Shown here: in pieces, positions 4,630 through 63,445 of the stretch
How positions within the stretch are numbered: the stretch's first letter is position 1
How the letters are laid out: every line of letters begins with the position of its first letter
Source of the DNA: Enterobacteria phage Ac3
Sequence record: OK040907
Direction: 5' to 3' (one strand)
Length of the DNA: 64,000 nt
Program-made: the position numbers and the translations under genes
Notes under the pieces: generated by a model
Database searches by the model: none
Told to the model about the DNA's origin: nothing
Seen by the model: the letters and a program-made list of their open reading frames with translations, nothing else

Positions 4630-6254
<1,625 letters not shown>

Positions 6255-6255
<1 letters not shown>

Positions 6256-6491
6256 TGGAAGGTTTAATTGAAGCTATTAAATCAAACGACCTCGTAGCCG
6301 CTCGTAAATTATTTGCTGAAGCCATGGCTGCAAGAACGACTGATTTAATCAAAGAAGAAAAAATCACTATCGCTCGTAATTTCTTAATCGAGGGTGAAGA
6401 ACCTGATGACGAGGATGACGACGAAGATAGCGATGATGATAAAGACGACAAAAAAGACAAAGACTCTGATGAAGACGAGGATGATGAATAA
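6255..6491 (+). CDS. 67: Prohead core protein with acidic C-terminus
   Basis: 78 aa, D/E-rich tail, position between 20 and 68. Confidence 0.85.
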
Positions 6492-7554: not shown

Positions 7555-7557
7555 ATA
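7550..7557 (+). promoter_or_regulatory. Late promoter TATAAATA upstream of gene 22
   Basis: Exact TATAAATA overlapping gene 21 stop, 28 nt upstream of gene 22 ATG. Confidence 0.6.
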
Positions 7558-7584
7558 TTATTATCTAAACAACAGGACTACAAA

Positions 7585-8394
7585 ATGCTTAAAGAACAAC
7601 TGATTGCCGAAGCGCAGAAAATTGATGCTTCCGTTGCTCTTGATAGTATTTTCGAATCAGTTAATATTTCTCCGGAAGCAAAAGAAACTTTCGGCACTGT
7701 ATTCGAAGCTACCGTCAAGCAGCACGCCGTTAAATTAGCTGAATCTCATATCGCTAAAATTGCTGAAAAAGCAGAAGAAGAAGTAGAAAAAAATAAAGAA
7801 GAAGCAGAAGAAAAAGCTGAGAAGAAAATCGCTGAGCAAGCTTCTAAATTCCTTGACCATCTTGCAAAAGAATGGCTCACTGAAAATAAATTAGCAGTAG
7901 ATAAAGGTATCAAAGCCGAACTGTTTGAATCCATGCTTGGTGGATTGAAAGAGCTCTTCGTTGAACACAACGTTGTTGTTCCAGAAGAATCAGTTGATGT
8001 TGTAGCTGAAATGGAAGAAGAACTGCAAGAACATAAAGAAGAATCAGCTCGTCTGTTCGAAGAACTCAATAAGCGTGACGCATATATCAATTATGTGCAG
8101 CGTGAAGTGGCATTGAGCGAAAGTACTAAAGATCTGACTGAGTCTCAAAAAGAAAAAGTCTCTGCTCTGGTCGAAGGTATTGATTATTCAGATGCATTCT
8201 CAAGCAAATTGAGTGCCATCGTAGAAATGGTGAAGAAATCTAATAAAGATGAAAGCACTATTACTGAGAGTATAAATACTCCTGATACTGAAGCAGCCGG
8301 ACTGAATTTCGTCACTGAAGCTGTAGAAGATAAATCTGCACAAGGTGCAGAAGATATTGTAAGTGTATATGCGAAAGTCGCATCTCGTTTCTAA
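7585..8394 (+). CDS. 22: Prohead core scaffold protein
   Basis: 269 aa, coiled-coil E/K-rich, order as T4. Confidence 0.9.
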   Translation: MLKEQLIAEAQKIDASVALDSIFESVNISPEAKETFGTVFEATVKQHAVKLAESHIAKIAEKAEEEVEKNKEEAEEKAEKKIAEQASKFLDHLAKEWLTENKLAVDKGIKAELFESMLGGLKELFVEHNVVVPEESVDVVAEMEEELQEHKEESARLFEELNKRDAYINYVQREVALSESTKDLTESQKEKVSALVEGIDYSDAFSSKLSAIVEMVKKSNKDESTITESINTPDTEAAGLNFVTEAVEDKSAQGAEDIVSVYAKVASRF

Positions 8395-8412
8395 TTTTAA
8401 AGGTTAACACAA

Positions 8413-9978: not shown

Positions 9979-9993
9979 TCTTTGACGATTTAA

Positions 9994-10009
9994 GGGACCT
10001 TCGGGTCCC
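9994..10009 (+). terminator. Hairpin gggaccttcgggtccc after gene 23
   Basis: Perfect 6-bp GC stem with tetraloop, followed by T-rich run. Confidence 0.6.
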
Positions 10010-10026
10010 TTTAGTTGTTTTTATGG

Positions 10027-10034
10027 TATAAATA
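10027..10034 (+). promoter_or_regulatory. Late promoter TATAAATA upstream of gene 24
   Basis: Exact TATAAATA 27 nt upstream of ATG. Confidence 0.6.
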
Positions 10035-10061
10035 AATCATATAAACCAAAAGGAAAGCGCA

Positions 10062-11345
10062 ATGGCTAAAATCAACGAACTTCTGCGCGAATCAACCACA
10101 ACGAATAGCAACTCAATCGGTCGCCCAAATCTCGTTGCTTTGACTCGCGCTACCACTAAATTAATATATTCTGACATTGTAGCAACGCAAAGAACTAATC
10201 AACCTGTTGCTGCTTTTTATGGTATCAAATACCTTAACCCAGACAACGAATTTACATTTAAAACTGGTGCTACTTATGCTGGCGAAGCTGGATATGTAGA
10301 CCGAGAACAAATCACAGAATTAACAGAAGAGTCTAAATTAACTCTCAATAAAGGCGATTTATTCAAATATAATAATATCGTTTATAAAGTATTAGAAGAT
10401 ACACCATTTGCTGATATTGAAGAAAGTGATTTAGAATTAGCTCTTCAGATTGCAATTGTTCTTTTAAAGGTTCGTCTATTTTCTGACGCGGCGTCAACAA
10501 GCAAATTTGAAAGCTCTGATAGTGAAATTGCGGATGCTAGATTCCAGATTAATAAATGGCAAACCGCAGTTAAATCTCGTAAACTTAAAACTGGTATCAC
10601 AGTTGAATTAGCACAAGATTTAGAAGCAAATGGATTCGATGCTCCTAATTTCTTGGAAGATTTGCTTGCAACTGAAATGGCAGATGAAATCAATAAAGAT
10701 ATTCTGCAGTCTTTGATTACAGTATCAAAACGTTATAAAGTTACAGGAATTACTGATACTGGATTCATTGATTTGAGTTATGCATCTGCACCTGAAGCTG
10801 GTCGTTCATTATACCGAATGGTATGTGAAATGGTTTCGCATATCCAAAAAGAATCAACTTATACAGCAACGTTCTGTGTTGCTTCAGCTCGTGCCGCTGC
10901 GATTCTTGCTGCATCAGGTTGGTTAAAACATAAACCAGAAGATGATAAGTATCTTTCACAAAATGCCTACGGGTTCTTAGCTAATGGTTTACCGCTTTAT
11001 TGCGATACTAACAGCCCATTAGATTATGTAATCGTTGGCGTAGTAGAAAATATCGGTGAAAAAGAAATTGTTGGATCAATTTTCTATGCTCCGTATACAG
11101 AAGGTCTCGACTTAGATGACCCTGAACATGTAGGTGCATTTAAAGTTGTTGTTGATCCAGAAAGCTTGCAACCGTCTATCGGTTTATTAGTTAGATATGC
11201 TTTATCTGCAAATCCTTATACTGTAGCAAAAGATGAAAAAGAAGCAAGAGTAATTGACGGTGGAGACATGGATAAAATGGCGGGTCGTTCAGATTTGTCT
11301 GTTTTATTAGGTGTTAAATTACCAAAAATTATTATCGATGAATAA
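10062..11345 (+). CDS. 24: Capsid vertex protein (gp23 paralog)
   Basis: 427 aa, order and length as T4 gp24. Confidence 0.93.
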   Translation: MAKINELLRESTTTNSNSIGRPNLVALTRATTKLIYSDIVATQRTNQPVAAFYGIKYLNPDNEFTFKTGATYAGEAGYVDREQITELTEESKLTLNKGDLFKYNNIVYKVLEDTPFADIEESDLELALQIAIVLLKVRLFSDAASTSKFESSDSEIADARFQINKWQTAVKSRKLKTGITVELAQDLEANGFDAPNFLEDLLATEMADEINKDILQSLITVSKRYKVTGITDTGFIDLSYASAPEAGRSLYRMVCEMVSHIQKESTYTATFCVASARAAAILAASGWLKHKPEDDKYLSQNAYGFLANGLPLYCDTNSPLDYVIVGVVENIGEKEIVGSIFYAPYTEGLDLDDPEHVGAFKVVVDPESLQPSIGLLVRYALSANPYTVAKDEKEARVIDGGDMDKMAGRSDLSVLLGVKLPKIIIDE

Positions 11346-11351
11346 AACAAA

Positions 11352-11367
11352 GGGACCGAAAGGTCCC
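11352..11367. terminator. Bidirectional hairpin gggaccgaaaggtccc between convergent genes 24 and rnlB
   Basis: Perfect inverted repeat flanked by A and T runs. Confidence 0.6.
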
Positions 11368-11374
11368 TTTTTAT

Positions 11375-12379
11375 TTAGCTCACCAACTCAATCCAAGCTG
11401 GACGAAGTACATCTTGCACCATTTTAACTAATTCCTTTTTAATCAAAGAAGGATTATCTGCTTGAGTTAGAGTAATACCTTCACGAGAAGTTTCTTCCAA
11501 AATATCTTGGACAGTTAGCCCCATCACCTTTCCAAAATCCTTTGGACCAATTTCGCCAATTTTAGAAATAACGTTATTTACTCGGTTCAGTGTAACGTAA
11601 CAAGCTAAAATTCCCACCAATTTGTTATCAGCTTCTGACAATTCAACTTTAGCTTTAATAGGCTTATCAGACTTTTTCTTTTCACTAAATTTAGAATTCT
11701 TGCATTTGATGGCTACACGATTGCGATTAGGCAGCCAAGAAGGATAACAAGGTTTCAATACATATCCTTCAGCGGTAAATACTTCGCCTTTGGCTTCGGC
11801 ATTCCAAACGCATTTATTTGCATCAACTAATCCAGCATGGTCTACTGTAAAATTATAATCTTGGACGACAGAATCTAAATCATTTGGCAATTTAATAAGC
11901 TCTTCAAATTTACCGCGGCCTAAAAGTGGAGCGATTTTAAACCCAAATGAATTACAAAATGATTCCATCATATAATCATCGACATAAGTCACATCGCCAC
12001 TTTCTGTAGTGACAATAATGTCAAATACATAAAAATCTTTATCGCCATAATCAACATTCTTCTGAATGCCAGGTCCAGCGAATTCGCCAAAAACTTGATA
12101 AGATACAACCGCTGAAATTTCCATAATATCTTGTACTGCTTTAATGGAATCAGCGTAATTCTTTAGAATAATTTCATACCCAAAGAAATCTTCAGCAGGA
12201 AGAATCGGTCCAGTACGTTTAGCGCAAGTTACTTTATCACGCTCAATAATCAATGAGAAATTTGTGCCGTGAATCTTTTCACGAGCTACCCATTCGCCGC
12301 CAGTCAATCCCAAGCTATAAAGTTTTTCAATAAATTTAGAGTTGTAATGATTTTCAAGACTGCTATACTTTTTAAACAT
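11375..12379 (-). CDS. rnlB: RNA ligase 2
   Basis: 334 aa; nucleotidyltransferase motif KIHGTN; position after gene 24 as T4 rnlB. Confidence 0.9.
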
Positions 12380-12391
12380 AATTAATCCTTA

Positions 12392-12670
12392 AAATGTAAT
12401 TTCTAACCAATCACCATCACGCTGATCACTATTGACTTTAAAATTAAATCCTTCTTTTCTCAGCCAATCACCAATTTCTTCAGTAATCAATTTATCACGA
12501 GCAGTACAATAATAACTAAAATATGTTTTACCTTGTTCAGCTGCTTTATTAGCAAGTTCTGAAAAATCTTTAATAAAACACTCTAGCTTAAACTGTTTAC
12601 TTTTTAATGCTTTTTCACGTAATTGATTAGCAAAAGATTCATTTTCATAAAGATTACACAGTGCCGTTTT
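12392..12670 (-). pseudogene. 93-codon open frame with protein-like translation but no ATG/GTG/TTG start; possible N-terminally truncated 24.2-like gene
   Basis: Manual translation ends ...RDGDWLEITF* 12 nt before rnlB start; frame opens exactly where the GC-rich block ends. Confidence 0.35.
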
Positions 12671-12869
12671 TCACCTTTTTGTTGATGTGACGTTTGCGGT
12701 AAACCACTTTTTCGCGGGTTTCGAACTTGTTTTTAGCGGTCATGGCACGTGCCCACAGAACGGCAACTTCTTTGGCCTGCAGGTTCAGTTCACGAGCAAT
12801 TTCGATGAAGCTTTTACCGGATTCGTGCAGGGTGAACACTACAACCTCGGTGCGCATAATCAATCTCAT
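12654..12869 (-). CDS. Small protein with helix-turn-helix-like segment; GC3-rich codon usage
   Basis: 71 aa ORF (67 aa from second ATG at 12857); codons ctg/cgt/acc/gaa dominate, unlike neighbours. Confidence 0.5.
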   Translation of the reverse strand: MRLIMRTEVVVFTLHESGKSFIEIARELNLQAKEVAVLWARAMTAKNKFETREKVVYRKRHINKKVKNGTV

Positions 12870-37800: not shown

Positions 37801-39190
<1,390 letters not shown>

Positions 39191-39194
<4 letters not shown>

Positions 39195-48944: not shown

Positions 48945-49184
48945 TTAAGCTTTCTTGGCAACTTTCCAGTCAGCTTTGAACTGATCGACGTCGCTGTGAT
49001 GGATCCAGAAGCCGGAGCTGGAACCGTCTTCATAGAGTGGGCAACCGTCACATTCATCTTCCCAACCCATATCACGCAGGAGATGTTCTGCCTTTTCGAT
49101 CAGCTCGGAATCTTTACCAATGATGTTGAAGTACCATTTGCCGCGTACTTCAGAGTCTTTAATGGACTGACGCTGCAGACGCAT
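48945..49184 (-). CDS. Small Cys-containing protein with GC3-rich codon usage
   Basis: 79 aa from MRLQRQ with gaggag RBS and own early promoter; the 109-aa track ORF starts upstream. Confidence 0.55.
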   Translation of the reverse strand: MRLQRQSIKDSEVRGKWYFNIIGKDSELIEKAEHLLRDMGWEDECDGCPLYEDGSSSGFWIHHSDVDQFKADWKVAKKA

Positions 49185-49242: not shown

Positions 49243-49503
49243 TTATTTTTGAATTTTATCGAGCCACTTACCAAGCTTAATCATTTCTTTAGTAGCCTTT
49301 TCCATACTTCTGAACTTAACCAATAGAGGATAGGTATCGACACCCATAACTAAACTGGTTACAAGACTGTGTTCACCCACAAGCCATAACGAATACGTTT
49401 GAATATCGAGTCCGTAATTTCTGTCTTTATGGACCCGTACACCCATCACTTCAAATTTCTCACTAGCTTTTTCTACCGCATCCAGGAAATCATCTTTAGT
49501 CAT
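49243..49503 (-). CDS. Hypothetical protein
   Basis: 86 aa from MTKDD with aagg RBS; start adjacent to upstream stop. Confidence 0.5.
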   Translation of the reverse strand: MTKDDFLDAVEKASEKFEVMGVRVHKDRNYGLDIQTYSLWLVGEHSLVTSLVMGVDTYPLLVKFRSMEKATKEMIKLGKWLDKIQK

Positions 49504-49504
49504 A

Positions 49505-49891
49505 TTAGGCCTTAAAAGTTTTTCGCAAAAGTTCAATGATTTCATCTACATTGTTTTCGTCAACAATGCAGTGAATTTTTGTTACGCCAGAAACTATACC
49601 TTCATTAGCGGATTGAGGCTTTTCTAAAGTTACCTCAGTAAAGTATTTGAATTCTTCAGAGTAAATCTCAAAATACGTCTCAAGTGGGCCACCCGCCATG
49701 TATTCAGTACCATCTTCCATAGTTACACGTACCACACATTCACCAGCACAATCATCACTTTCCATTTCATCTACAACAAAACTAGGTCCGTGCTTCTCTA
49801 TTAAATTTAGCATCATTACATTGCAACGGCACTCGTTAGCAAAGTCATTTTTAAATAAAGGGTTAATGATATAAGTTTTTCCAACTTCCAC
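49505..49891 (-). CDS. Hypothetical protein
   Basis: 128 aa ORF. Confidence 0.55.
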   Translation of the reverse strand: MEVGKTYIINPLFKNDFANECRCNVMMLNLIEKHGPSFVVDEMESDDCAGECVVRVTMEDGTEYMAGGPLETYFEIYSEEFKYFTEVTLEKPQSANEGIVSGVTKIHCIVDENNVDEIIELLRKTFKA

Positions 49892-49937
49892 TTTGATTTC
49901 CTCATTTTAACGGGGCTATCAAATAGCCCCTTGATAA

Positions 49938-50168
49938 TTACTGTTCGATGAGACCCATGTAGAATTCCGCATCTTCGGAGTCCATACCGTCGCAGTATTC
50001 GTTAGCCATGAAGCGGGTCAGGTCCTCCAGTGGACCCTCAATAACAATGCTAAAGTTACAATAGTTCGGGTCATCATGGATGGAAGTAATAGACAGCTCC
50101 GGGTAACGGTTGCGGATAATTTCCTCGATGTATTCGAAATCAACGATGTCGATGTCTACTTTAGCCAT
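49938..50168 (-). CDS. Small acidic protein with GC3-rich codon usage
   Basis: 76 aa from MAKVDID with aggaaa RBS and own early promoter. Confidence 0.55.
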
Positions 50169-50211
50169 ATTATTTTCCTCTTTGATCATCAGCAGTATTG
50201 CCGATAGTTGT

Positions 50212-50241
50212 ATAGTACCATGGAAGGACAAGGATGTAAAC
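50212..50241 (-). promoter_or_regulatory. Early promoter: GTTTAC, 18-nt spacer, TACTAT
   Basis: Minus-strand GTTTAC at 50236-50241 and TACTAT at 50212-50217. Confidence 0.5.
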
Positions 50242-50314
50242 AGTTTTGTGAAAAAATTTTTGAAATAAAAAAGGGGACCTCTAGGGTCCCCAATTAATTA
50301 GTAATTATAATCTA

Positions 50315-51223
50315 TTACAGGTCGTTCAGGAGGTCATCCAGGTCGGTATCGTCGGCGCTGGAAGAGGAGCCGCTAGAGGAAGACATGAAGTCATCTTCGG
50401 TTTTAGTGTTAAAATCGTCAACGTTAAAGGCGTCCAGGTCATCCGCTACCTTATCGGCTTTCTTAGCCGCAGTAGCCGCAGCACCGCCCATCACAGCAGT
50501 GCCCATAACCTGACCGAACTTGGTGTTGAGTTCCTCAAAAGATTTAAATTTATCTTTGGAGGTCATCTCAGACAGATCTACCATCTGCTCAAACAGTTCT
50601 TTTTGGAAAGATTCGTCATCGATGTTCGGGATAGCAGACTGGTTCAGAAATTTGCTCTCGTCGTAATTGGAGAAACCAGAAACCTGTTTAACCTTCAGAA
50701 CGAAGTTGGCACCCTCCCACGGGCAGGTGACGTCGACCGGGGTTTCACCCATCTCCACGTCCACCGCAATCATAGCGTTAATTTTATCCCAGATTTTCTT
50801 ACCAAAGCGGTATTTGAAAACCTTACCCTCGTTTTCTGGCGCAGCTGGATCCTTTACAACCAGGATGTTAGCCCAGTAAGAGGTTTTACGTTTCACCAGG
50901 CCGTATTCTTTATTGTCGGTATTATACAGATCGTTTTTGGAAATGTACTGACACACCGGGCAAGAGTCGTAGTCGCCGTGGGTGGAAGAACAGTTTTCGA
51001 TGTACCATTTGCCGTTTTTCTTAAAACCGTGGTTCACCAGGATAGCGAACGGAGCCTGTTCGTCATTTTTGCTCGGCAGGAAGCGGATCACCGCCTGACC
51101 GTTGCCCGCGTTGTCCAGTTTCAGTTTCCATTCGCCTTTGTCCTCAGAGCTGAAGCCACCTTTGTTGCCCGCCAGCTTGGCCATCTGCGCAGCCAGTTCT
51201 GCCGTGCTCTTACGCTTGAACAT
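50315..51223 (-). CDS. 32: Single-stranded DNA-binding protein
   Basis: 302 aa; zinc ligands H/C/C/C in HGF...ENC...DSCPVC; acidic C-terminus; operator directly upstream. Confidence 0.95.
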
Positions 51224-51255
51224 TTTTATTTCCTTTTTAATTTAATTAACAGTTG
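51224..51255 (-). promoter_or_regulatory. Gene 32 translational operator (AU-rich unstructured leader)
   Basis: Minus-strand ttaattaaattaaaaaggaaataaaa immediately 5' of the ATG, as in T4 gene 32 autoregulation. Confidence 0.6.
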
Positions 51256-51306
51256 GTGCTATGACGATGTATGACCTCATAGCTGGTCAGTGAGATAATT
51301 ATAATT

Positions 51307-51314
51307 TATTTATA
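51307..51314 (-). promoter_or_regulatory. Late promoter TATAAATA upstream of gene 32
   Basis: Plus-strand tatttata about 85 nt upstream of the gene 32 ATG. Confidence 0.4.
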
Positions 51315-51322
51315 ATAAGCAA

Positions 51323-51976
51323 TTAATACTTACAAGATTTCACAGTTTCAATAAAAACTTTTTTAGCTTCCTGTGAATCGATATTTAAAATTTTTCTATA
51401 AGCTTTTAACTTTATAGAATAATTGTTCCAAACTAAATTATCAGTTTGTTCATCATGTTTATCAATTATATTTAAAAACGAATCAAGCAAGATAAACGTC
51501 TCAAACGAAATTATGTTCGATTGCAGAAGTTTAAAAATATAACTTGATTGAACTTTTGGATTATATTCAAAAATTTCTTTAAAAGCAGAAACTTCAACTT
51601 TTTTACTAAAATAATAAATGTTGCGAATATCTTCTTCAAACTTAAATTTAATTTGCTTTAAGCGTCCGATATATTCACGATAAAACACAAGTGCATCAGC
51701 GTCAGAGATGTCACCAATCCAAGCATCTTGGTTAGCAACCAAATTACTTATAAAGATTAAAGCAAGTTCCTTTAATTTATATTTTTCTGATAACTTCTGA
51801 AAAAAATACTTATCCCTTCGCTTTTGATAAGCGGCATCAGACACCCGCATGCACCAATTATACTTAATTACATCATACTTTCCATTCATATGTTGTTTTA
51901 TCATTAAGTATAATTTATAAACTGATTTACCATCAATGTATCTTTCACCACCAGCAGGCATGCGGAGTTTAATCAT
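51323..51976 (-). CDS. 59: Helicase loader (gp41 loading protein)
   Basis: 217 aa; matches T4 gp59. Confidence 0.9.
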   Translation of the reverse strand: MIKLRMPAGGERYIDGKSVYKLYLMIKQHMNGKYDVIKYNWCMRVSDAAYQKRRDKYFFQKLSEKYKLKELALIFISNLVANQDAWIGDISDADALVFYREYIGRLKQIKFKFEEDIRNIYYFSKKVEVSAFKEIFEYNPKVQSSYIFKLLQSNIISFETFILLDSFLNIIDKHDEQTDNLVWNNYSIKLKAYRKILNIDSQEAKKVFIETVKSCKY

Positions 51977-52320
51977 AGCAGAAAATCTAATGTATTAGTT
52001 TTTTCACAACGAACAACAGAAGGACGTAAAAGATTTTCGTCAATAGCTTCTGACTGAATTTTTTCAATTATACCCGAAGGAATAAATTTAGCAAATTGAG
52101 TTTCAGGAATAGAATTTTCTTCCAAGAATGCTGTCGTAGCTTCAAGATAACTCATTCCAAACTCTTCTACCATTTTTTCAATAATAAATCCATTTTCTTG
52201 GCGGTCAAGAAGCTTTGCAATTTCATCCTTTTCTTTCTTAATTGAAAGTTCTTTTTCTGAAAGCCCGGCCTCATCGACCGGGCGAATATCATTTAGAGAA
52301 AACTGTGTCATAAAGTTCAA
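51973..52320 (-). CDS. 33: Late transcription co-activator
   Basis: 115 aa ORF (112 aa from second Met); position between dsbA and 59. Confidence 0.75.
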   Translation of the reverse strand: MNFMTQFSLNDIRPVDEAGLSEKELSIKKEKDEIAKLLDRQENGFIIEKMVEEFGMSYLEATTAFLEENSIPETQFAKFIPSGIIEKIQSEAIDENLLRPSVVRCEKTNTLDFLL

Positions 52321-52558
52321 CTACCTCTTCAGTTTCAGCTTCAAACACATCACGGTTATCTTTATGATATAGAGCCAAAAGACGATTAAACATCTTGCCA
52401 TCAACACCAAGTTCATCTTTGGCACGAATTCGAATATCTTTAATTAATTCATTATAACCGGAAATTTTCAGTTTATGATCAGATGCTTCTTTAATAAATT
52501 TAGCCAAGTCTTCGCCGTGGATAGCTTCATCAAATTCAACCATTTCTTTTTTAGCCAT
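52289..52558 (-). CDS. dsbA: Double-stranded DNA-binding protein
   Basis: 89 aa; position between rnh and 33. Confidence 0.75.
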   Translation of the reverse strand: MAKKEMVEFDEAIHGEDLAKFIKEASDHKLKISGYNELIKDIRIRAKDELGVDGKMFNRLLALYHKDNRDVFEAETEEVVELYDTVFSK

Positions 52559-52566
52559 TATTCACC

Positions 52567-53484
52567 TCAAAATTCATTAATGCTATTGGTTAATTTAGAA
52601 AGACCCGCTTTTACAAAATATGAATAAATTTTGCCACGCGGTGGTAATTTATATGAATTATAGTAATTCACAATGTTTGAAGCAATATTATCAGGAATAT
52701 AATCAAAATCAATTAGAACTAAATTTTCTTTATAACGATTATATTCAGATTCTGTGAGAAGCACCTTAGCTTGCTCACGGTCATTAGCAATAGCTTCAAC
52801 GATTGAAGTTTTCATTGAAGGAGTTCGTTCACCTTCAACTTTGGTAAACCAAAAGTCAGATCGTACTTTAACTGAAGCAACGTTATCCTTTTTATCGCCT
52901 TTAAGGATTTTAGTCATACAGTCAATTTCAGCAGAACCGCTTTTAATTTTAACCCATTTCTTGTGCATCGGTGACCATTGCTTAACATTTGGATATTTGT
53001 GAAGTTGAGTAAAGTCACCATCAGATGAAATGATTAAAATCTTGTGTCCTTCTAAAGAGAACTTTTTAACAAGAACAGCAATGTGGTCATCTGCTTCATA
53101 CTTATCGATATCCATAACAATGTATGGCATATAAGCTTTCAATTCATCTATAACTTTATGACTGGATTCAAAATAACCTTCCCAGTCCCAAATAGATTCT
53201 TCTCGTGCTTTTCCACGGTTTTTCTTATAATAATACGCGAAATCACGACGCCAATATCCAGATTTCGCATTATCAATACACAGTACAATTTTAGTGTATC
53301 CAAGAGTTTTTGCTTTTTTGACATTAAACTTAATTGAGTTCAATATCAAATGACGAACCATTGATAAATTAATTTTTTCTTTATCTGGAAAGTTTACCAA
53401 AGCAGTTGAAAGCGCAATTTGACTAAAGTCAATAAAGCAAATTCCTTCTTTGTAATCTTCATCCAGCATCATTTCTAAATCCAT
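52567..53484 (-). CDS. rnh: RNase H (5'-3' exonuclease / flap endonuclease)
   Basis: 305 aa from MDLEMM (the track ORF has 5 extra codons); matches T4 RNase H. Confidence 0.85.
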   Translation of the reverse strand: MDLEMMLDEDYKEGICFIDFSQIALSTALVNFPDKEKINLSMVRHLILNSIKFNVKKAKTLGYTKIVLCIDNAKSGYWRRDFAYYYKKNRGKAREESIWDWEGYFESSHKVIDELKAYMPYIVMDIDKYEADDHIAVLVKKFSLEGHKILIISSDGDFTQLHKYPNVKQWSPMHKKWVKIKSGSAEIDCMTKILKGDKKDNVASVKVRSDFWFTKVEGERTPSMKTSIVEAIANDREQAKVLLTESEYNRYKENLVLIDFDYIPDNIASNIVNYYNSYKLPPRGKIYSYFVKAGLSKLTNSINEF

Positions 53485-53546
53485 ATGAACCTCGTTCAAT
53501 TAGTGAGATTTCTATTATATACCATCCAAATCTTAAAGTAAACAAG

Positions 53547-53554
53547 TATAAATA
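53547..53554 (+). promoter_or_regulatory. Late promoter TATAAATA upstream of gene 34
   Basis: Exact TATAAATA 35 nt upstream of ATG. Confidence 0.6.
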
Positions 53555-53588
53555 CTTATTATTGAAAACACAATAGGAGCCCGGGAGA

Positions 53589-56500
53589 ATGGCCGAGATT
53601 AAAAGAAAGTTCAGAGCAGAAGATGGTCTGGACGCAGGTGGTGATAAAATAATCAACGTAGCTTTAGCTGATCGTGCCGTAGGAACTGACGGTGTAAACG
53701 TTGATTACTTAATTCAAGAAAACACAGTTCAACAATATGATCCAACTCGTGGATATTTAAAAGATTTTGTAATCATTTATGATAACCGCTTTTGGGCTGC
53801 TATAAATGATATTCCAAAACCAGCAGGAGCTTTTAATAGCGTACGATGGAGAGCGTTACGCACTGATGCAAACTGGACAACTGTTTCGTCAGGACCTTAT
53901 CAATTAAAATCAGGCGAATCGATTTCAGTTAACACCGCAGCGGGTAATGACATTACATTTACTTTGCCATCTTCTCCAATTGATGGTGATACTATCGTTC
54001 TCCAAGATATTGGAGGAAAACCTGGAGTTAACCAGGTTTTAATTACAGCTCCGGTACAAAGCATTGTAAATTTTAGAGGTCAACAAGTACGCTCAGTACT
54101 AATGACTCATCCAAAATCACAGATAGTTTTAATTTTTAGTAATCGTCTGTGGCAAATGTATGTTGCTGATTATAGCAGAGAAGCGGCAGTTGTAACACCG
54201 GCAAGTCTTTATCAAGCGCAATCAAACGATTTTATCGTGCGTAGATTTACTTCTGCTTCAGCAATTAATATTAAACTTCCTAGATTTGCTAATCATGGGG
54301 ATATTATTAATTTTGTTGATTTAGATAAATTAAATCCACTTTATCACACAATTGTTACCACATATGATGAAACAACTTCAGTACAAGAAGTTGGAACTCA
54401 TTCCATTGAAGGCCGTACATCTATTGATGGTTTCTTAATGTTTGATGATAATGAGAAATTGTGGAGATTGTTTGACGGGGATAGTAAAGCACGTTTACGC
54501 ATTATAACGACTAATTCTAATATTCGTCCAAATGAAGAAGTCATGGTATTTGGCGCGAATAATGGAACAACCCAAACAATTGAACTTCAGCTTCCAACTG
54601 ATATTTCTATCGGTGATACTGTTAAGATTTCCATGAATTATATGAGAAAAGGACAAACAGTTAAAATCAAAGCTGCCGGTGAAGATAAAATTGCTTCTTC
54701 AGTTCAATTGCTGCAATTTCCAAAACGTTCAGAATACCCACCTGAAACTAAATGGGTGACTGTTCAAGAATTAGTTTTTAATGGCGAAACCAATTATGTT
54801 CCAGTTTTACAGCTTGCTTATATCGAAGATTCCGATGGAAAATATTGGGTTGTACAGCAAAACGTTCCAACTGTAGAAAGAGTAGACTCTTTAAATAATT
54901 CTACTAGAGCAAGATTAGGCGTAATTGCTTTAGCTACACAGGCTCAAGCTAATGCTGATCTAGAAAATTCTCCACAAAAAGAACTGGCAATTACTCCAGA
55001 AACGTTAGCTAATCGTACTGCTACAGAAACTCGTAGAGGTATTGCAAGAATAGCAACAACTGCGCAAGTAAACCAGGATACCACATTCTCTTTTGCAGAT
55101 GACCTTATCATCACTCCTAAAAAGTTGAATGAAAGAACTGCTACAGAAACTCGTAGGGGTGTCGCTGAAATTGCTACGCAACAGGAAACTAATACAGGTA
55201 CTGATGATACGACAATCATCACTCCTAAAAAGCTTCAAGCTCGCCAAGGTTCTGAATCATTATCTGGTATTGTAACTTTTGTATCTACTGCAGGTGCTAC
55301 TCCAGCTTCTAGCCGTGAATTAAATGGTACGAATGTTTATAATAAAAACACTAATAATTTAGTTGTTTCGCCAAAAGCTTTGGACCAGTATAAAGCTACG
55401 CCTACTCAACAGGGTGCAGTAATTTTAGCAGTTGAAAGTGAAGTAATTGCTGGTCAAAGTCAAGAAGGATGGGCAAATGCTGTTGTGACGCCAGAAACGT
55501 TACATAAAAAGACATCAACTGATGGAAGAATTGGTTTAATTGAAATTGCTACGCAAAGTGAAGTTAATACAGGAACTGATTATACTCGTGCAGTCACTCC
55601 TAAAACTTTAAATGACCGTAGAGCAACTGAAAGTTTAAGTGGTATAGCTGAAATTGCTACACAAGTTGAATTCGACGCAGGCGTCGACGATACTCGTATC
55701 TCTACACCATTAAAAATTAAAACTAGATTTAATAGTACTGATCGTACTTCTGTTGTTGCTCTATCTGGATTAGTTGAATCAGGAACTCTCTGGGACCATT
55801 ATACCCTTAATATTCTTGAAGCAAATGAGACACAACGTGGTACACTTCGTGTGGCTACACAAGTTGAAGCTGCTGCTGGAAAATTAGATAATGTTTTAAT
55901 AACTCCTAAAAAGCTTTTAGGTACTAAATCTACTGAAGCACAAGAAGGTGTTATTAAAGTTGCAACACAAACCGAAACTGTTGCTGGAACATCGGCAAAT
56001 ACTGCTGTATCTCCAAAAAATTTAAAATGGATTGTGCAGAGTGAACCTACTTGGGCAGCTACTACTGCAGTAAGAGGCTTTGTTAAAACTTCATCTGGTT
56101 CAATTACATTCGTTGGTAATGATACAGCCGGTTCTACTCAGGACTTAGAGCTATACGAGAAAAATAGCTATGCAGTATCACCATACGAATTAAACCGTGT
56201 ATTAGCAAATTATTTGCCATTAAAAGCAAAAGCTGCAGATAGTAATTTATTGGATGGTCTAGATTCATCTCAGTTCATTCGTAGGGATATTGCGCAGACG
56301 GTTAATGGTTCACTAACCTTAACTCAACAAACGAATCTGAGTGCCCCTCTTGTATCATCTAGTACTGCTACGTTCGGTGGATCAGTTTCAGCAAATAGTA
56401 CATTAACTATTTCTAATACTGGAACAGCAACTCGATTGATTTTTGAGAAAGGACCTCAAACTGGAACAAACCCAGCCCAAACGATGACTGTTAGAGTGTG

Positions 56501-57458
56501 GGGAAATCAATTTAGTGGGGAATTAGATACAACACGTTCTACCGTATTTGAAGTTAGTGATGAAACATCTAGTCATTTTTATTCTCAGCGCAATAAAGCC
56601 GGAAATATAACATTTAATATCAACGGTACAGTAACACCGATAAATGTTAATGCTTCAGGAACATTGAATGCAAATGGCGTAGCAACATTTGGTAATTCAG
56701 TCACTGCAACTGGTGAAATTATTTCTCGAAGCGCAAATGCTTTCCGTGCTATTAACGGAAATTATGGTTTCATTGTTCGCAATGATGGATCAGTAACGAA
56801 TTTTATGCTTACTGCATCGGGTGATCAGACTGGTGGATTTAACGGATTACGCCCATTAGCTATTAATAATGCATCTGGTCAAGTAACGATTGGTGAAAGC
56901 TTAATCATCGCCAAAGGTGCTACTATAAATTCTGGTGGTTTAACTGTTAACTCGAGAATTCGTTCTCAAGGTACTAAAACATCTGACTTATATACACGTG
57001 CGCCAACATCTGATACTGTAGGATTCTGGTCAATTGATATTAACGATTCAGCTACTTATAACCAGTTCCCAGGTTATTTTAAAATGGTTGAAAAAACTAA
57101 TGAAGTGACTGGTCTTCCATATTTAGAACGTGGCGAAGAAGTTAAATCTCCTGGTACACTGACTCAGTTTGGTAACACACTTGATTCGCTTTACCAAGAT
57201 TGGATTACTTATCCAACAACGCCAGAAGCGCGTACCACTCGCTGGACACGTACATGGCAGAAAACCAAAAATTCTTGGTCAAGTTTTGTTCAGGTATTTG
57301 ATGGAGGTAATCCTCCTCAACCATCTGATATTGGTGCTTTACCATCTGATAATGCTACAATGGGTAATCTTACTATTCGTGATTTCTTACGAATTGGTAA
57401 TGTTCGCATTATTCCTGACCCAGTGAATAAAACTGTTAAATTTGAATGGGTTGAATAA
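53589..57458 (+). CDS. 34: Long tail fibre proximal subunit
   Basis: 1289 aa as T4 gp34; internal fibre repeats. Confidence 0.95.
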   Translation: MAEIKRKFRAEDGLDAGGDKIINVALADRAVGTDGVNVDYLIQENTVQQYDPTRGYLKDFVIIYDNRFWAAINDIPKPAGAFNSVRWRALRTDANWTTVSSGPYQLKSGESISVNTAAGNDITFTLPSSPIDGDTIVLQDIGGKPGVNQVLITAPVQSIVNFRGQQVRSVLMTHPKSQIVLIFSNRLWQMYVADYSREAAVVTPASLYQAQSNDFIVRRFTSASAINIKLPRFANHGDIINFVDLDKLNPLYHTIVTTYDETTSVQEVGTHSIEGRTSIDGFLMFDDNEKLWRLFDGDSKARLRIITTNSNIRPNEEVMVFGANNGTTQTIELQLPTDISIGDTVKISMNYMRKGQTVKIKAAGEDKIASSVQLLQFPKRSEYPPETKWVTVQELVFNGETNYVPVLQLAYIEDSDGKYWVVQQNVPTVERVDSLNNSTRARLGVIALATQAQANADLENSPQKELAITPETLANRTATETRRGIARIATTAQVNQDTTFSFADDLIITPKKLNERTATETRRGVAEIATQQETNTGTDDTTIITPKKLQARQGSESLSGIVTFVSTAGATPASSRELNGTNVYNKNTNNLVVSPKALDQYKATPTQQGAVILAVESEVIAGQSQEGWANAVVTPETLHKKTSTDGRIGLIEIATQSEVNTGTDYTRAVTPKTLNDRRATESLSGIAEIATQVEFDAGVDDTRISTPLKIKTRFNSTDRTSVVALSGLVESGTLWDHYTLNILEANETQRGTLRVATQVEAAAGKLDNVLITPKKLLGTKSTEAQEGVIKVATQTETVAGTSANTAVSPKNLKWIVQSEPTWAATTAVRGFVKTSSGSITFVGNDTAGSTQDLELYEKNSYAVSPYELNRVLANYLPLKAKAADSNLLDGLDSSQFIRRDIAQTVNGSLTLTQQTNLSAPLVSSSTATFGGSVSANSTLTISNTGTATRLIFEKGPQTGTNPAQTMTVRVWGNQFSGELDTTRSTVFEVSDETSSHFYSQRNKAGNITFNINGTVTPINVNASGTLNANGVATFGNSVTATGEIISRSANAFRAINGNYGFIVRNDGSVTNFMLTASGDQTGGFNGLRPLAINNASGQVTIGESLIIAKGATINSGGLTVNSRIRSQGTKTSDLYTRAPTSDTVGFWSIDINDSATYNQFPGYFKMVEKTNEVTGLPYLERGEEVKSPGTLTQFGNTLDSLYQDWITYPTTPEARTTRWTRTWQKTKNSWSSFVQVFDGGNPPQPSDIGALPSDNATMGNLTIRDFLRIGNVRIIPDPVNKTVKFEWVE

Positions 57459-57466
57459 GAGGTATT

Positions 57467-58582
57467 ATGGAAAAATTTATGGCAGAGTTTGGACAAGGAT
57501 ATGTCCAAACGCCATTTTTATCGGAAAGCAATTCAGTAAGATATAAAATAAGTATAGCGGGTTCTTGCCCGCTTTCTACCGCAGGACCATACGTTAAATT
57601 TCAAGATAATCCTGTAGGAAGTCAAACATTTAGTGCAGGTCTTCATTTAAGAGTTTTTGACCCTTCCACGGGAGCATTGGTTGATAGTAAGTCATATGTT
57701 TTTTCTACTTCAAATGATACAACATCTGCTGCTTTTGTTAGTTTTATGAATTCTTTTTCAAGCAATAGACTTGTTGCTATATTAACTAGCGGAAAGGTTA
57801 ATTTTCCTCCTGAAGTAGTATCTTGGTTAAGAACGGCAGGAACATCTGCTTTTCCATCTGATTCTTTATTGTCAAGATTTGACGTATCATATGCTGCCTT
57901 TTACACTTCTTCTAAAAGAGCTATCGCACTAGAGCATGTTAAACTGAGTAACAGAAAAAGCACAGATGACTATCAAACTATATTAGATGTAGTATTTGAT
58001 AGTTTAGAAGATGTTGGAGCGACAGGATTTCCTAAAAGAACATATGAAAGCGTTGAGCAATTTATGTCAGCTGTTGGTGGAACTAATAACGAAATTGCAC
58101 GTCTACCTACAGCATCTGCAATAAGTAAACTTTCTGACTATAATTTAATTCCTGGAGATGTTCTTTATCTTAAAGCACAACTATATGCTGATGCTGATTT
58201 ATTAGCGTTGGGAACTACTAATATTTCAATTCGTTTTTATAATGCGTCGAATGGATATATTTCCTCGACACAAGCTGAGTTTACCGGACAAGCTGGATCT
58301 TGGGAATTAAAAGAAGATTATGTAGTTGTTCCTGAAAATGCAGTAGGATTTACGATATACGCACAGAGAACTGCACAAGCGGGTCAAGGCGGTATGAGAA
58401 ATTTAAGCTTTTCTGAAGTGTCAAGAAATGGTGGCATTTCAAAACCTGCTGAGTTTGGCGTCAATGGTATTCGAGTTAATTATATCTGTGAATCTGCTTC
58501 ACCTCCGGATATAATGGTACTTCCTACGCAAGCATCGTCTAAAACTGGTAAAGTGTTTGGGCAGGAATTTAGAGAAGTTTAA
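57467..58582 (+). CDS. 35: Long tail fibre hinge connector
   Basis: 371 aa; position. Confidence 0.9.
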   Translation: MEKFMAEFGQGYVQTPFLSESNSVRYKISIAGSCPLSTAGPYVKFQDNPVGSQTFSAGLHLRVFDPSTGALVDSKSYVFSTSNDTTSAAFVSFMNSFSSNRLVAILTSGKVNFPPEVVSWLRTAGTSAFPSDSLLSRFDVSYAAFYTSSKRAIALEHVKLSNRKSTDDYQTILDVVFDSLEDVGATGFPKRTYESVEQFMSAVGGTNNEIARLPTASAISKLSDYNLIPGDVLYLKAQLYADADLLALGTTNISIRFYNASNGYISSTQAEFTGQAGSWELKEDYVVVPENAVGFTIYAQRTAQAGQGGMRNLSFSEVSRNGGISKPAEFGVNGIRVNYICESASPPDIMVLPTQASSKTGKVFGQEFREV

Positions 58583-58587
58583 ATTGA

Positions 58588-58605
58588 GGGAGCCTTCGGG
58601 TTCCC
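58588..58605 (+). terminator. Hairpin gggagccttcgggttccc after gene 35
   Basis: GC stem with UUCG-type loop, followed by T-run. Confidence 0.5.
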
Positions 58606-58613
58606 TTTTTCTT

Positions 58614-58621
58614 TATAAATA
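58614..58621 (+). promoter_or_regulatory. Late promoter TATAAATA upstream of gene 36
   Basis: Exact TATAAATA 24 nt upstream of ATG. Confidence 0.6.
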
Positions 58622-58644
58622 CTATTAAAATAAAGGGGCATACA

Positions 58645-59301
58645 ATGGCTGATTTAAAAGTAGGTTCAACAACTGGAGGCTCTGTCATTTGGCATCAAGG
58701 AAATTTTCCATTGAATCCAGCCGGTGACGATGTACTCTACAAATCATTTAAAATATATTCAGAATATAATAAACCACAAGCAACTGATAACGATTTCGTT
58801 TCTAAAGCTAATGGTGGTACTTATTTAAATAAAGTAATTTTTAATAAAGGAATGACTGTTCCTGGTGCTGGGTCAGGTGACAACGGTATTTTTGCCGGTC
58901 CTGGTGATAATGCCACATATGATACTACAAATATGGATATTGTTTCATGGTATGGTATCGGCTTTAAATCATCACAAGGGGCAGCAGGTAGAACTGTAGT
59001 AATTAACACACGAAACGGAGATATTAGCTCAAAGGGTGTAATTGAAGCATCACAAATACGCGCAACTTCGTTATCACCAGTAAATAATTATGACCTTACG
59101 AGAAAAGATTATGTTGATGGGGCAATAAATATTGTTACAACAAATGCAAACTCTAGAGTATTACGCTCTGGAGACACTATGACAGGAAATTTAACTGCGC
59201 CAAACCTTTTTTCACAGAATCCTGCATCTCAACCCTCGCATGTTCCGCGATTTGACCAAATCGTAATTAAGGATTCTGTTCAAGATTTCGGCTATTATTA
59301 A
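58645..59301 (+). CDS. 36: Long tail fibre distal connector
   Basis: 218 aa; GDTMTG fibre motif. Confidence 0.9.
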   Translation: MADLKVGSTTGGSVIWHQGNFPLNPAGDDVLYKSFKIYSEYNKPQATDNDFVSKANGGTYLNKVIFNKGMTVPGAGSGDNGIFAGPGDNATYDTTNMDIVSWYGIGFKSSQGAAGRTVVINTRNGDISSKGVIEASQIRATSLSPVNNYDLTRKDYVDGAINIVTTNANSRVLRSGDTMTGNLTAPNLFSQNPASQPSHVPRFDQIVIKDSVQDFGYY

Positions 59302-59309
59302 GAGGACTT

Positions 59310-62300
59310 ATGGCTACTTTAAAACAAATACAATTTAAAAGAAGCAAAACCGCAGGAGCACGTCCTGCCGCTTCAGTATTAGCCGAAGGTGAATTGGCTA
59401 TAAACTTAAAAGACCGTGTACTTTTTACTAAAGATGACCAAGGAAATATTATTGATCTGGGTTTTGCTAAGGGCGGTAGTATTGACGGGAATGTTATTCA
59501 TATAGGAAACTATAACCAAACTGGTGATTATACTTTAAATGGCGCATTAACTCAGACAGGTAATTTTAATTTAACTGGTATTGCTCGAGTAACTCGCGAT
59601 ATTATTGCCGCTGGGCAGATTATGACTGAAGGCGGAGAACTTATTACAAAAAGTTCAGGTACAGCGCATGTTCGTTTTTTCGATGGCAATAGTCGCGAAC
59701 GCGGAATCATTTATGCCCCGGCTAATGATGGTTTAACTACACAAGTACTTAATATCAGGGTTCAAGACTATGCCGCTGGTAGCGAAACGACTTATCGATT
59801 TTCAGGCAGTGGCCTATTTACTTCACCTGAAGTATCAGCATGGAAATCTATTTCGTCTCCACAAATTCTGACCGATAAAGTTATTACAAATGGGAAGAAG
59901 ACAGGCGATTATGATATCTATTCATTATCAAATAACACTCCAATGGCAGAAGGCGAAACGGCTATTAACCACCTCCGTGTTATGCGAAATGCTGTAGGAG
60001 CAGGTATTTTCCACGAAGTTAATGTTAATGACGGAATAACCTGGTATTCCGGACATGGCTTAGACACTTATCTTTGGTCGTTTAACTGGGCCGGTGGATT
60101 GAAAGCTGGTCATTCTATTGCTGTGGCCTTCCTCACGGTTCTAAAATTATTCAGAAATGGGCACGGCTTCTATTGCTTTAGGAGAGTAGATGATACCGGA
60201 TTTAAATGGCATCAGGATGGATATTATTTCAGCGTTAATAATGGAACAAAAACATTTTTATTTAGTCCTAGTGAAACAACTAGCCTAAGAAAATTTGTAG
60301 CTGGATATTCTACTAACGGAACCGATTTAACGACTCCTCCAACTGAAAACTATGCTCTTGCTACTGTCGTGACATATCACGATAATAACGCGTTTGGAGA
60401 TGGTCAGACTCTTTTAGGATATTATCAAGGCGGTAATTATCATCACTATTTCCGCGGTAAAGGTACTACAAACATTAATACTCACGGCGGTTTGTTAGTT
60501 ATTACTCCCGGTAATGTAGATGTGGTCGGCGGCATGGTTACCATTGATGGTAAAAATTATGCTTCTAGTGTGCTTTTTAAAGGAAATACTACAGGATATA
60601 GTTCAGTTGATAATATAGAGCTCAAAGTTTGGGGTGACACTTTTAATACAGTAGGTGGTACTCGTAAAAACGTAATGGAAACATCTGATGCTACTGGCTG
60701 GATGCATTATATTCAACGAACTACAGCAGGTAAAGTTGAGTCCTATTTAAATGGTACCATGAATGTAAATGAAAGCATCAACGTCAGTAAAGAAGTTAAC
60801 GCCTCTGGCACTATTGCTAGTAATGCTGTCAATGCGCTTCGCATTTGGAATGCAGATTATGGAGCTATTTTTAGACGTTCAGAAGGAAGTCTTCATATTA
60901 TTCCAACTGCTTATGGTGAAGGCAAAAATGGTGATATCGGTCCACTTCGCCCGTTTAGTATGGCTTTAGATACCGGTAAAGTTACTATTCCAGATTTACA
61001 ATCAAGTTACAATACGTTCGCTGCGAACGGCTATATTAAATTTGTTGGTCATGGAGCGGGTGCCGGCGGTTATGACATTCAATATGCTCAAGCGGCTCCT
61101 ATTTTCCAGGAAATTGATGGATGCTGTAAGCAAATATTTATCCCTATTGTTAAACAGAAGTTTTTAAATGGTAAAGCCGTTTGGTCTTTAGGTACTGAAA
61201 TTAATTCTGGTACATTTGTTTTACATCATCTGAAAGAAGATGGACACAAGGTCATACATCAAGATTTAATGCTGACGGTACAGTTAATTTCCCTGATAAC
61301 GTTCAAGTCGGTGGTGGTGAAGCTACTATTGCTCGTAATGGTAATATTTTCTCGGATATTTGGAAACTGTTTACTTCTGCTGGAGACACTACAAATATTC
61401 GGTGATGCAATAGCTACTCGTGTTGCTAAAGAAGGTGATACGATGACCGGTAGGTTGACTTTATCAGCTGGAAATGATGCACTTGTTTTAACTGCAGGCG
61501 TGGGTGCTTCATCACACATCCGTAGTGATGTAGGTGGTATAGGTAACTGGTATATAGGCAAAGGCGGCGGCGACAATGGTCTAGGTTTTTACAGTTACAT
61601 TACACAAGGCGGTGTATACATAACAAATAACGGCGAAATAGCGCTTTCTCCTCAAGGTCAAGGAACATTTAATTTTAATAGGGATCGCCTTTATATAAAT
61701 GCTAGTCAATGGGTTGCACATAAATCTGGCGCTTGGGGTGACCAATGGGGCTTAGAAGCTCCTGTATTTGTGGATTTTGGTAGTGTCGGTAATGATAGTT
61801 ATTATCCTATTATTAAAGGAAAATCTGTTATTACGAATGAAGGATACATATCTGGCGTTGATTTTGGTATGCGTCGCATTACTAATACATGGGCACAAGG
61901 TATTATTCGTGTAGGTAACCAGGAAAACGGTTCTGACCCACAAGCTATCTATGAATTCCACCACAATGGAGTTATGTATGTTCCTAACATGGTTAAAACC
62001 GGAGCAAGATTATCGGCTGGCGGTGGTGACCCGGTGTGGACTGGACCATGTCTTGTTATTGGTGATAATGTATCCGGATTAGTTCATGGTGGTGATGGGC
62101 GAATTAACATGGTTGCAAATGGAGCGCATATTGCTTCGTGGTCTTCATCTTATCATTCTCATCCTGGCCTTTGGGATTCAAACGGTGCTTTGTGGACGGA
62201 AGTTGGCAAAGCAGTTATTTCTCATGGTCATTTAGTTCAGGCGAATGACAACTATTCAACATATGTCCGCGATGTTTATGTCCGCTCTGATATTCGTGTT

Positions 62301-62621
62301 AAAAAGAACCTCGTTAAATTTGAAAATGCTTCTGAGAAGCTTTCTAAAATTAACGGTTACACTTATATGCAGAAACGTGGAACAGATGAAGAAGGTAATC
62401 AGAAATGGGAACCTAACGCAGGTTTGATAGCTCAAGAAGTTCAAGATATTTTACCAGAATTCGTTGAAGGTGACCCGGATGGTGAAGCTTTACTTCGTTT
62501 GAACTATAACGGTGTAATTGGTTTAAATACAGCTGCAATCAATGAGCATACTGCAGAAATTGCAGAACTTAAGTCAGAGATTGAAGAGCTTAAAAAATTA
62601 GTTAAATCATTGTTAAAATAA
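59310..62621 (+). CDS. 37: Long tail fibre distal subunit with C-terminal intramolecular chaperone-like domain; internal out-of-frame segment
   Basis: 1103 aa; conserved N-terminus [13 protein letters not shown]; C-terminal coiled coil; about 52 codons at 61245-61401 read in a shifted frame. Confidence 0.88.
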
Positions 62622-62652: not shown

Positions 62653-63426
62653 ATGGCAGTTGAAGGACCGTGGGTAGGATGGTCTGCGAGGGTACAGACT
62701 GGAGATCCTTGGATGGGTGGTGCCGCGCAGAGATTGAGAATGGGAATTCCGTTTTGGATGAGTAATATGATAGGTCGATCTGTTGAAATAATTCACACGC
62801 TTGGAGCAGACCATAACTTCAATGGTCAATGGTTCCGAGATAGATGTTTTGAGGCAGGTAGTACACCTATAGTGTTTAATATCACTGGAGATTTAGTATC
62901 ATATTCTAAAGATGTTCCTTTATTCTTCATGTACGGAGATACACCGAATGAATATGTTCAGTTGAATATACACGGCGTAGCGATGTATGGCCGTGGCGGT
63001 AATGGCGGTAGCAATAGTCCTGGTTCAGCTGGAGGTCATTGTATTCAAAACGATATTGGTGGGAGACTAAGAATTAATAATGGCGGAGCTATTGCAGGCG
63101 GTGGCGGCGGTGGCGGTGGCGGTAACAGGGGTCGACTAGTATTTGGTGGTGGCGGTGGTCGCCCATTCGGTAGTGGCGGGTCTTCCCTCTCTCACATGAG
63201 TGCTGGTGCAACCGCCGGCACCATTTACGCTCCGGGTGCAGGATCTGTCGGTGAGGGGTCTCTTAGTGCATATACAGGCGGGTCTGGTGGTGAAGTTGGC
63301 TCCGCAGGAGGTAGAAATACTCACGGTACCGGTACAGAATATGACGGCGGAGCTGCTGGTTATGCTGTTATAGGGTCGTCTCCAACGTGGATAAATGTTG
63401 GAGCAATATATGGTCCAAGAGTATAA
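62653..63426 (+). CDS. 38: T2-type receptor-recognising adhesin with glycine-rich motifs
   Basis: 257 aa from MAVEGPW with ggagg RBS; poly-Gly stretches; conserved [22 protein letters not shown]. Confidence 0.85.
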
Positions 63427-63445
63427 ATGGTAATACCTCTCAGCA

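Follow-up and report, generated by a model that had tools for sequence, protein, structure and literature searches.

Three compensated frameshifts in the gene 37 entries of Enterobacteria phage Ac3 and their probable origin as legacy base-calling errors

Long tail fibres of the T2/T6/S16 type have a distal subunit, gp37, that carries a C-terminal intramolecular chaperone, and a separate adhesin, gp38. Two kinds of precedent exist for a stretch of out-of-frame codons in a gene that nevertheless stays open. One is biological: intragenic frameshift suppression of the type seen in rIIB. The other is archival: compensated frameshift errors in database entries of the Sanger era are a known class of artefact, for which frameshift detection by similarity search was developed, and the adjacent-base inversions that old entries can also contain are typical of gel compressions. 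Genuine compensated pairs do occur in evolution, although a systematic survey of them passed only 6 of 624 candidates through quality filtering (PMC8935012).

The DNA analysed here, 'the window', is a stretch of 64,000 nucleotides from phage Ac3 (OK040907). An earlier, sequence-only reading of it had reported that part of gene 37 is out of frame between two single-base indels, and had offered three explanations: an error of sequencing or assembly, a natural compensated variant, or a deliberate edit. We find that the pair of indels is indeed in the sequence, but that it is one of three compensated sets in the gene, the other two having been missed. Comparisons of the sequences favor the first explanation: with a probability of roughly 0.92, the frameshifted stretch is a database artefact, comprising base-calling errors in a 1998 entry, AF060870, that were copied into the later Ac3 genome.

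Gene 37 of Ac3 and its relatives

The ORFs at 53589–57458, 57467–58582, 58645–59301, 59310–62621 and 62653–63426 are colinear with genes 34, 35, 36, 37 and 38 of phage RB51, and then comes t. Gene 37 thus occupies its usual place in the order 34-35-36-37-38-t; it is homologous over its full length to T-even gp37, and is the same length as in most close relatives, including all seven whose genes were retrieved. It is matched by 635 phage records, 146 of which cover at least 80% of the gene and are annotated as gp37 or as long tail fibre distal subunit. A protein collection searched with the repaired form of gp37 returned 1046 proteins at E ≤ 1e-50.

The domains of the protein are unremarkable. 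Residues 452–550 form a trimerisation domain like that of gp34, and residues 993–1052 a Peptidase_S74 chaperone domain (PF13884; 48 bits, against a cut-off of 22). Residues 913–1102 match chain A of PDB entry 6F45, the fibre tip of phage S16; for residues 560–910, no solved structure was matched by sequence. Downstream lies gene 38, whose product is identical to UJJ74629.1, 'receptor-recognizing adhesin protein'; the near-identical gene 38 of the independent assembly described below matches Gp38_N and GP38. Both hallmarks of T2/T6/S16-type gp37, the C-terminal chaperone domain and the separate downstream adhesin, are therefore present, and Ac3 gene 37 is an ordinary member of this class.

Two database records contain the same gene. 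Window gene 37 is 100% identical, over 3312 nt, to positions 323–3634 of AF060870, the 4475-bp tail-fibre locus of Ac3 deposited in 1998. The encoded protein is exactly that of AAC62007.1 (UniRef100_O80269), and exactly that of UJJ74628.1, which belongs to a 168,395-bp genome record of Enterobacteria phage Ac3. The gp38 entry, UJJ74629.1, comes from this same genome record; window gene 38 differs from that of 1998 by the absence of one TGT codon, at 63316.

Three out-of-frame segments

Nucleotide alignments of gene 37, first with KNP1, MLF4, vB_Eco_CP, VEc74 and RB51 and later with a set of eight full-length genes, bear out the out-of-frame stretch of ~157 nt and place both of the compensating indels that bound it (Table 1, segment 3). 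The sequence-only reading had the missing base in the right position but misidentified it: what has been lost is a T rather than an A, and the residue it restores is serine (EDGSQGH). The extra G had been located correctly. It lies in a GG pair, and it restores the reading frame three codons ahead of a TAG that would end the shifted frame. The absence of stops from the shifted stretch, also remarked upon earlier, can be put more precisely: a run of 59 codons without a stop starts at 61234, the two indels lie close to its ends, and only 4% of 52-codon windows in the alternative frame are free of stops. This pattern is more than chance, and it fits the escape of those errors alone that preserve the ORF.

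What the two frames encode is much as had been supposed. As annotated, the segment is strongly hydrophobic (LLLLVMVIF) and unlike fibre shaft; read in the alternative frame it is normal fibre sequence, identical at 51 of 53 residues to P0003, the closest independent gp37. Within the 157 nt, differences from the relatives concentrate at third positions of the old frame (1/1/12 over the codon positions in the comparison with RB51, for example), which contradicts the idea that the new frame is under selection. Programmed ribosomal frameshifting was also considered and set aside; some six recoding events would be required within a single structural gene.

The other two segments are shorter. Segment 1 has lost a T after 60124 and an A from the A-run at 60143–60146, and has gained a G at 60186 and another at 60189 (GGAGATAATGAT to GGAGAGTAGATGAT). 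Segment 2 has lost AT after 61119 (GATGATGATGCT to GATGGATGCT), and has gained a T in the run at 61137–61139 and a C in the run at 61142–61144, such that a 13-residue stretch replaces IDDDAVSKYYPIV. Each of the three sets is exactly length-neutral, and these two, among the sequences compared, occur only in gene 37 of Ac3. Several of the indels are in short runs: TT, AAAAA, TTT, CCC and GG. When the frameshifting indels are removed, a clean ORF of 1103 codons results. Elsewhere in the gene there is an in-frame insertion of three bases, and there are several swaps of neighboring bases (Table 1).

Table 1. Features of the window discussed in the text (positions numbered from the first base of the window)
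Feature	Positions	Strand	Details
Gene 37, long tail fibre distal subunit	59310–62621	+	3312 nt; 1103 aa as written
Gene 38, adhesin	62653–63426	+	257 aa
Frameshifted segment 1	60125–60189	+	22-residue stretch replaced; from alignments with relatives
Frameshifted segment 2	61120–61144	+	GCCKQIFI replaces DDAVSKYY
Frameshifted segment 3	61245–61401	+	52 codons (~646–697) out of frame, HKVIHQ...LQIF; from nucleotide alignments
Missing base (segment 3)	61244–61245	+	Closest relative (L025) GGATCACAAGG, other relatives GGTTCACAAGG, window GGA-CACAAGG
Extra G (segment 3)	61401–61402	+	8/8 relatives ATTCGTGAT or ATTCGCGAT, window ATTCGGTGAT
Adjacent-base swap, TC to CT	61367–61368	+	Inside segment 3; WKSF to WKLF in restored frame
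Two swaps, GC to CG	59788–59789, 59796–59797	+	SESTYAF to SETTYRF; L025, RB51 and VEc74 have GC
Swap, ATA to TAT	62071–62073	+	GDNDTG to GDNVSG
In-frame insertion, TTA	60499–60501	+	LLVTPGN to LLVITPGN; absent from L025 and all 7 other relatives
Left junction	59266–59350	+	Upstream as RB51, unlike 1998 Ac3 record and L025; downstream as 1998 Ac3 record
Right junction	63424–63427	+	Ac3-type sequence ends exactly with gene 38 stop TAA (63424–63426)
Codon-optimised 24.3	12654–12857		
Codon-optimised RB32ORF217c-like gene	38892–39194		
Codon-optimised frd.1	48945–49184		
Codon-optimised frd.3	49938–50168		
Codon-optimised gene 32	50315–51223		

No other carrier of the shift came to light, either as a protein or as a contig with the junctions. 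Scans of IMG/VR for the exact patterns at the two indel junctions gave 4 and 6 loci, none of them similar to gene 37 and all, therefore, chance matches; neither JGI metagenomes nor IMG/VR contained a match to a pattern that allows either allele in Ac3-specific context; and window gp37, looked up exactly among encoding contigs, was not there. When the shifted peptide was used to search proteins it likewise gave no match, a weak negative since the Ac3 protein itself was also missed. The literature searched contains no mention of AF060870 or of SRR547737, and the Ac3 papers found there say nothing about frameshifts.

The independent assembly L025 and the make-up of the window

The most informative comparison is with L025, a 6219-bp Logan de novo contig from run SRR547737. 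It encodes P0003 (1102 aa), the best match to repaired gp37 at 99%, ahead even of the deposited Ac3 protein at 93%. L025 is 99.2% identical to the complete 4475-nt record of 1998, from first base to last. In the 3' part of gene 36, it is 99.4% identical to that record, versus 80.5% to the window, and it has the short spacer between genes 38 and t that the 1998 record has. Because of these three resemblances we regard L025, on the strength of sequence identity, as the same locus as the 1998 record, determined independently. The phage of SRR547737 could in principle be a near-clonal relative of Ac3 rather than Ac3 itself.

L025, the only independent assembly of the locus, has none of the indels, including the two that bound segment 3. 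It has the bases of RB51 and VEc74 wherever an indel or swap occurs; the window, at these sites, agrees with AF060870 alone. An alignment of the window with L025 over gene 37 contains 13 gap columns and 16 columns with a substitution. By codon position the substitutions number 5/5/6; 4 are transitions and 12 transversions, several of them being swaps of adjacent bases, and ordinary synonymous transitions are lacking altogether. Natural pairs of gp37 genes are quite different: they have 0–3 gap columns per 187–506 substitutions, transitions outnumber transversions, and third positions are in two- to four-fold excess. On either side of the gene, too, inversions separate the 1998 record from L025: one in gene 36 (AT to TA) and one in gene 38 (TG to GT). 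Gene 37 has 127 singletons specific to the window (46/38/43 over the codon positions; 89 non-synonymous), an excess due in part to stretches for which no close relative of Ac3 was among the seven sequences of the panel; in the same analysis, every relative shows third-position skew.

Neither a natural spectrum of mutation, then, nor selection in the new frame is found in the window's version of the gene. What is found is what base-calling errors produce: indels in runs, together with inversions, in a record that stands apart from all relatives. Going by these alignments, the difference between the window and L025 is evidently an error spectrum rather than natural divergence, and gene 37 of the 1998 record and gene 37 of L025 are apparently one sequence read twice, once badly. 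The bad reading would be that of 1998, because L025 agrees with all of the relatives.

The window might be thought a second witness for the frameshifts, but its make-up suggests otherwise. Its start is equivalent to RB51 coordinate 96001; it has one extra base, at 18699, and is 100% identical to RB51 at 1–12654, at 51250–59265, and from 63424 onward. Elsewhere, recoded CDSs aside, the backbone differs from RB51 at only three places, two of which are alleles of RB68. (Apparent blocks of 7 and 13 bases at 41690, 51800 and 53307 proved to be products of BLAST masking and parsing, the sequences being identical when compared directly; so, likewise, were apparent blocks at 7765 and 31641.) The left junction interval includes the start codon of gene 37, at 59310. 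The right junction is sharper: from 63427 the sequence is the RB51 spacer, ATGGTAATACCTCTCAG..., and not the shorter spacer of the 1998 Ac3 record and L025, and at this point RB51 and Ac3 have no homology able to support a natural crossover. Within window gene 37, moreover, the non-homopolymer inversions of AF060870 are reproduced. Because of the RB51-like backbone, the switch at the gene 38 stop and the copied inversions, the window is evidently a patchwork in which gene 37 was taken over from the old entry, and it is no independent witness.

The window has a further peculiarity, away from the fibre genes. Five CDSs (Table 1) are codon-optimised copies of RB51 genes, without amino-acid changes. 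Their G+C content is raised from ~0.36 to ~0.48, every stop is TAA, the rare codons AGA, CGA, CTA, ATA, GGA and TTA have been removed, and the recoding does not extend beyond the CDSs. Gene 24.2, which overlaps 24.3, has lost its start codon to the recoding of the latter. In the region 49500–51400, phage records reach 87.6% at most. To judge by these features, the recoding looks like something done in silico or by design.

Origin of the frameshifts

One sequence of events seems to us by far the likeliest. Sequencing of the 1998 locus would have added or dropped single bases within short runs, and would have inverted neighboring bases. Frame-breaking errors would have been caught and corrected ahead of submission; sets that happened to cancel before a stop left a full-length ORF and so would have been retained. 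Gene 37 of AF060870 would then have passed, base for base, into the 168,395-bp Ac3 record, the remainder of which is RB51-like. The real gene would be in frame throughout, with ordinary fibre at residues 646–697 as in L025, and no biological mechanism would be called for. Ac3 gene 37 resembles other compensated errors of the Sanger era in that its protein is unique to one record, the out-of-frame stretches are short, the other frame matches all homologues, and the indels, found in short runs and accompanied by inversions, are absent from an independent assembly. It differs from them in having three exactly length-neutral sets, and in having been propagated into a much later genome record. Two considerations weigh against this account. 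Gene 37 is the same, base for base, in the 1998 locus and in the later genome, which at face value would be replication; and chance errors would not readily yield three exactly length-neutral compensations in a single gene, so that an extra assumption is needed, namely that the depositors fixed, or adjusted by hand, only those errors that broke the ORF.

Could the frameshifts be real? The Ac3 stock would then have accumulated three sets of frameshift plus suppressor in gene 37, by intragenic suppression of the rIIB type, and the shaft would have to tolerate ~80 out-of-frame residues because host recognition resides in gp38 and the C-terminal part of gp37. The gene is, after all, identical in both Ac3 database records, each of the sets is back in frame ahead of a stop, the length stays at 3312 nt, and, as in a genuine compensatory pair, −1 and +1 indels bracket a stop-free stretch with the frame restored downstream. 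The resemblance stops there. The second record was pieced together and does not represent independent sequencing; the indels lack independent support, since the near-clonal assembly L025 is without all of them, and the mutation spectrum that accompanies them—indels, swaps and transversions only—is the wrong one. Each intermediate with a single frameshift would have left the phage without a distal fibre, the stretch is long (52 codons) and falls where an essential virion protein is structural and conserved, its substitutions still follow the old frame, and its hydrophobic character does not suit a shaft. The attrition of candidate pairs in the published survey counts against it as well. A natural compensated variant of this kind, and the tolerant shaft that goes with it, we consider very unlikely, and it is a shade less likely still that Ac3 truly makes a gp37 with three out-of-frame segments in its shaft (~80 residues, including a hydrophobic stretch of 52) and assembles working fibres from it. 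Were that so, large parts of the distal shaft would tolerate arbitrary sequence, and the phage of SRR547737 would be an unmutated sister.

Two explanations that place the indels at the later genome are the least probable of all. One is that the sequence was edited, deliberately or in silico, during assembly of the genome, whether as a watermark, as an engineered change or as a planted anomaly. Deliberate-looking edits do occur elsewhere in the window, in the five codon-optimised CDSs, and the junctions between Ac3 and RB51 sequence fall on CDS boundaries, but all three shifted segments are already present in AAC62007.1, and the DNA of AF060870 is identical. Since the old entry has the shifted protein, the indels predate any such assembly or editing, and the genome assembler at most copied them; for segment 3, to which the proposal of an edit had originally been attached, it fails. 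The other is a fresh error of assembly or polishing, unrelated to the 1998 entry, such as long reads make in homopolymers. The position of several indels within short homopolymer runs would suit this well enough; that every base is the same as in the Sanger-era record, down to the non-homopolymer GC to CG swaps, would not, for independent errors would not coincide. We give each of these two almost no credence, and return to legacy base-calling errors as much the better explanation of the gene.

The practical consequences are several. If, as we believe, the errors of AF060870 are at fault, the gp37 entries of Ac3 (AAC62007.1, UniRef O80269 and UJJ74628.1) would contain ~80 wrong residues together with several wrong point residues, and would be unsuitable for alignments, structure prediction, host-range engineering or gene synthesis. 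The corrected sequence of Ac3 gp37 would be that of P0003, in L025 (SRR547737). The later Ac3 genome record is evidently a composite and not an independent sequence, and comparisons that draw on it are affected. None of this is new biology: freed of its errors, Ac3 gene 37 shows no biological difference from other genes for the T2/T6/S16-type fibre, and is an ordinary fibre gene.

A patchwork of Ac3-type and RB51-type sequence

The window is a chimera: genes 37 and 38, of Ac3 type, sit in a backbone of the type of phage RB51. The left junction lies within 59266–59350, at or near the start of gene 37, and the right junction falls at 63426/63427—exactly after the stop codon of gene 38, the adhesin gene. 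The genuine Ac3-type locus is represented both by the 1998 GenBank record of the Ac3 tail-fibre region (AF060870) and by a de novo contig that we refer to as L025 (Logan contig SRR547737_69, 6219 bp, from a public sequencing run). In this locus the 3' part of gene 36 differs from that of the window, and the spacer between gene 38 and gene t is shorter than in the window.

Beyond the chimera and the recoding described below, the backbone of approximately 59 kb differs from RB51 at only three positions: 18699, 28799 and 49699. At the first, the window has one C more, two bases 5' of a late-promoter-like motif, TATAAATA, that precedes gene 51. At 28799 and 49699, substitutions change T to I in Alt and L to M in Frd.2; RB68 has both of these proteins in identical form, and RB14 has the same Alt.

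Synonymous recoding of five genes

Five coding sequences have been recoded with respect to RB51, each by 51–190 nt changes, mostly at third positions, and without a single amino-acid change. Their G+C content is 0.46–0.49, versus 0.34–0.39 in RB51. Codons of the kind favored by E. coli predominate (CTG, CGT/CGC, AAC, CAG and ACC), rare codons are gone, and every one of the five ends in TAA. The synonymous changes are confined to these coding sequences, and for 49500–51400 the closest phage record matches at 87.6%, with none nearer. This looks like codon optimization, deliberate or in silico. Where gene 24.3 overlaps gene 24.2, recoding of the former has overwritten the first five codons of the latter (MEQYD to TALCN), ATG included; the recoding of 24.3 therefore took no account of the adjoining gene.

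Coordinates of recoded genes and of sites compared in the window
Feature	Position	Strand	Remark
Gene 24.3	12654-12857	-	Synonymously recoded vs RB51
RB32ORF217c-like gene	38892-39194	-	Synonymously recoded vs RB51
frd.1	48945-49184	-	Synonymously recoded vs RB51
frd.3	49938-50168	-	Synonymously recoded vs RB51
Gene 32	50315-51223	-	Synonymously recoded vs RB51
Overlap of genes 24.3 and 24.2	12654-12667	-	
Further gene 38 and 37-38 spacer sites	63186-63188, 63378-63379, 62626/62627		AF060870 vs Logan contig comparison

A counterpart of the 1998 Ac3 record

In its gene 36-37-38 locus, L025 corresponds to the 1998 record without the latter's errors. At 63316, both AF060870 and the contig have a TGT (Cys) codon that is missing from the window's gene 38. 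In two other respects the window's gene 38 follows AF060870 and not the contig: it has an additional CCT, and a TG is swapped to GT. The spacer between genes 37 and 38 has an extra C in AF060870 but not in the window, RB51 or the contig. Across about 554 bp 3' of gene 38, mostly gene t, L025 and the window differ at five positions. The phage sequenced in SRR547737 may be Ac3 itself.
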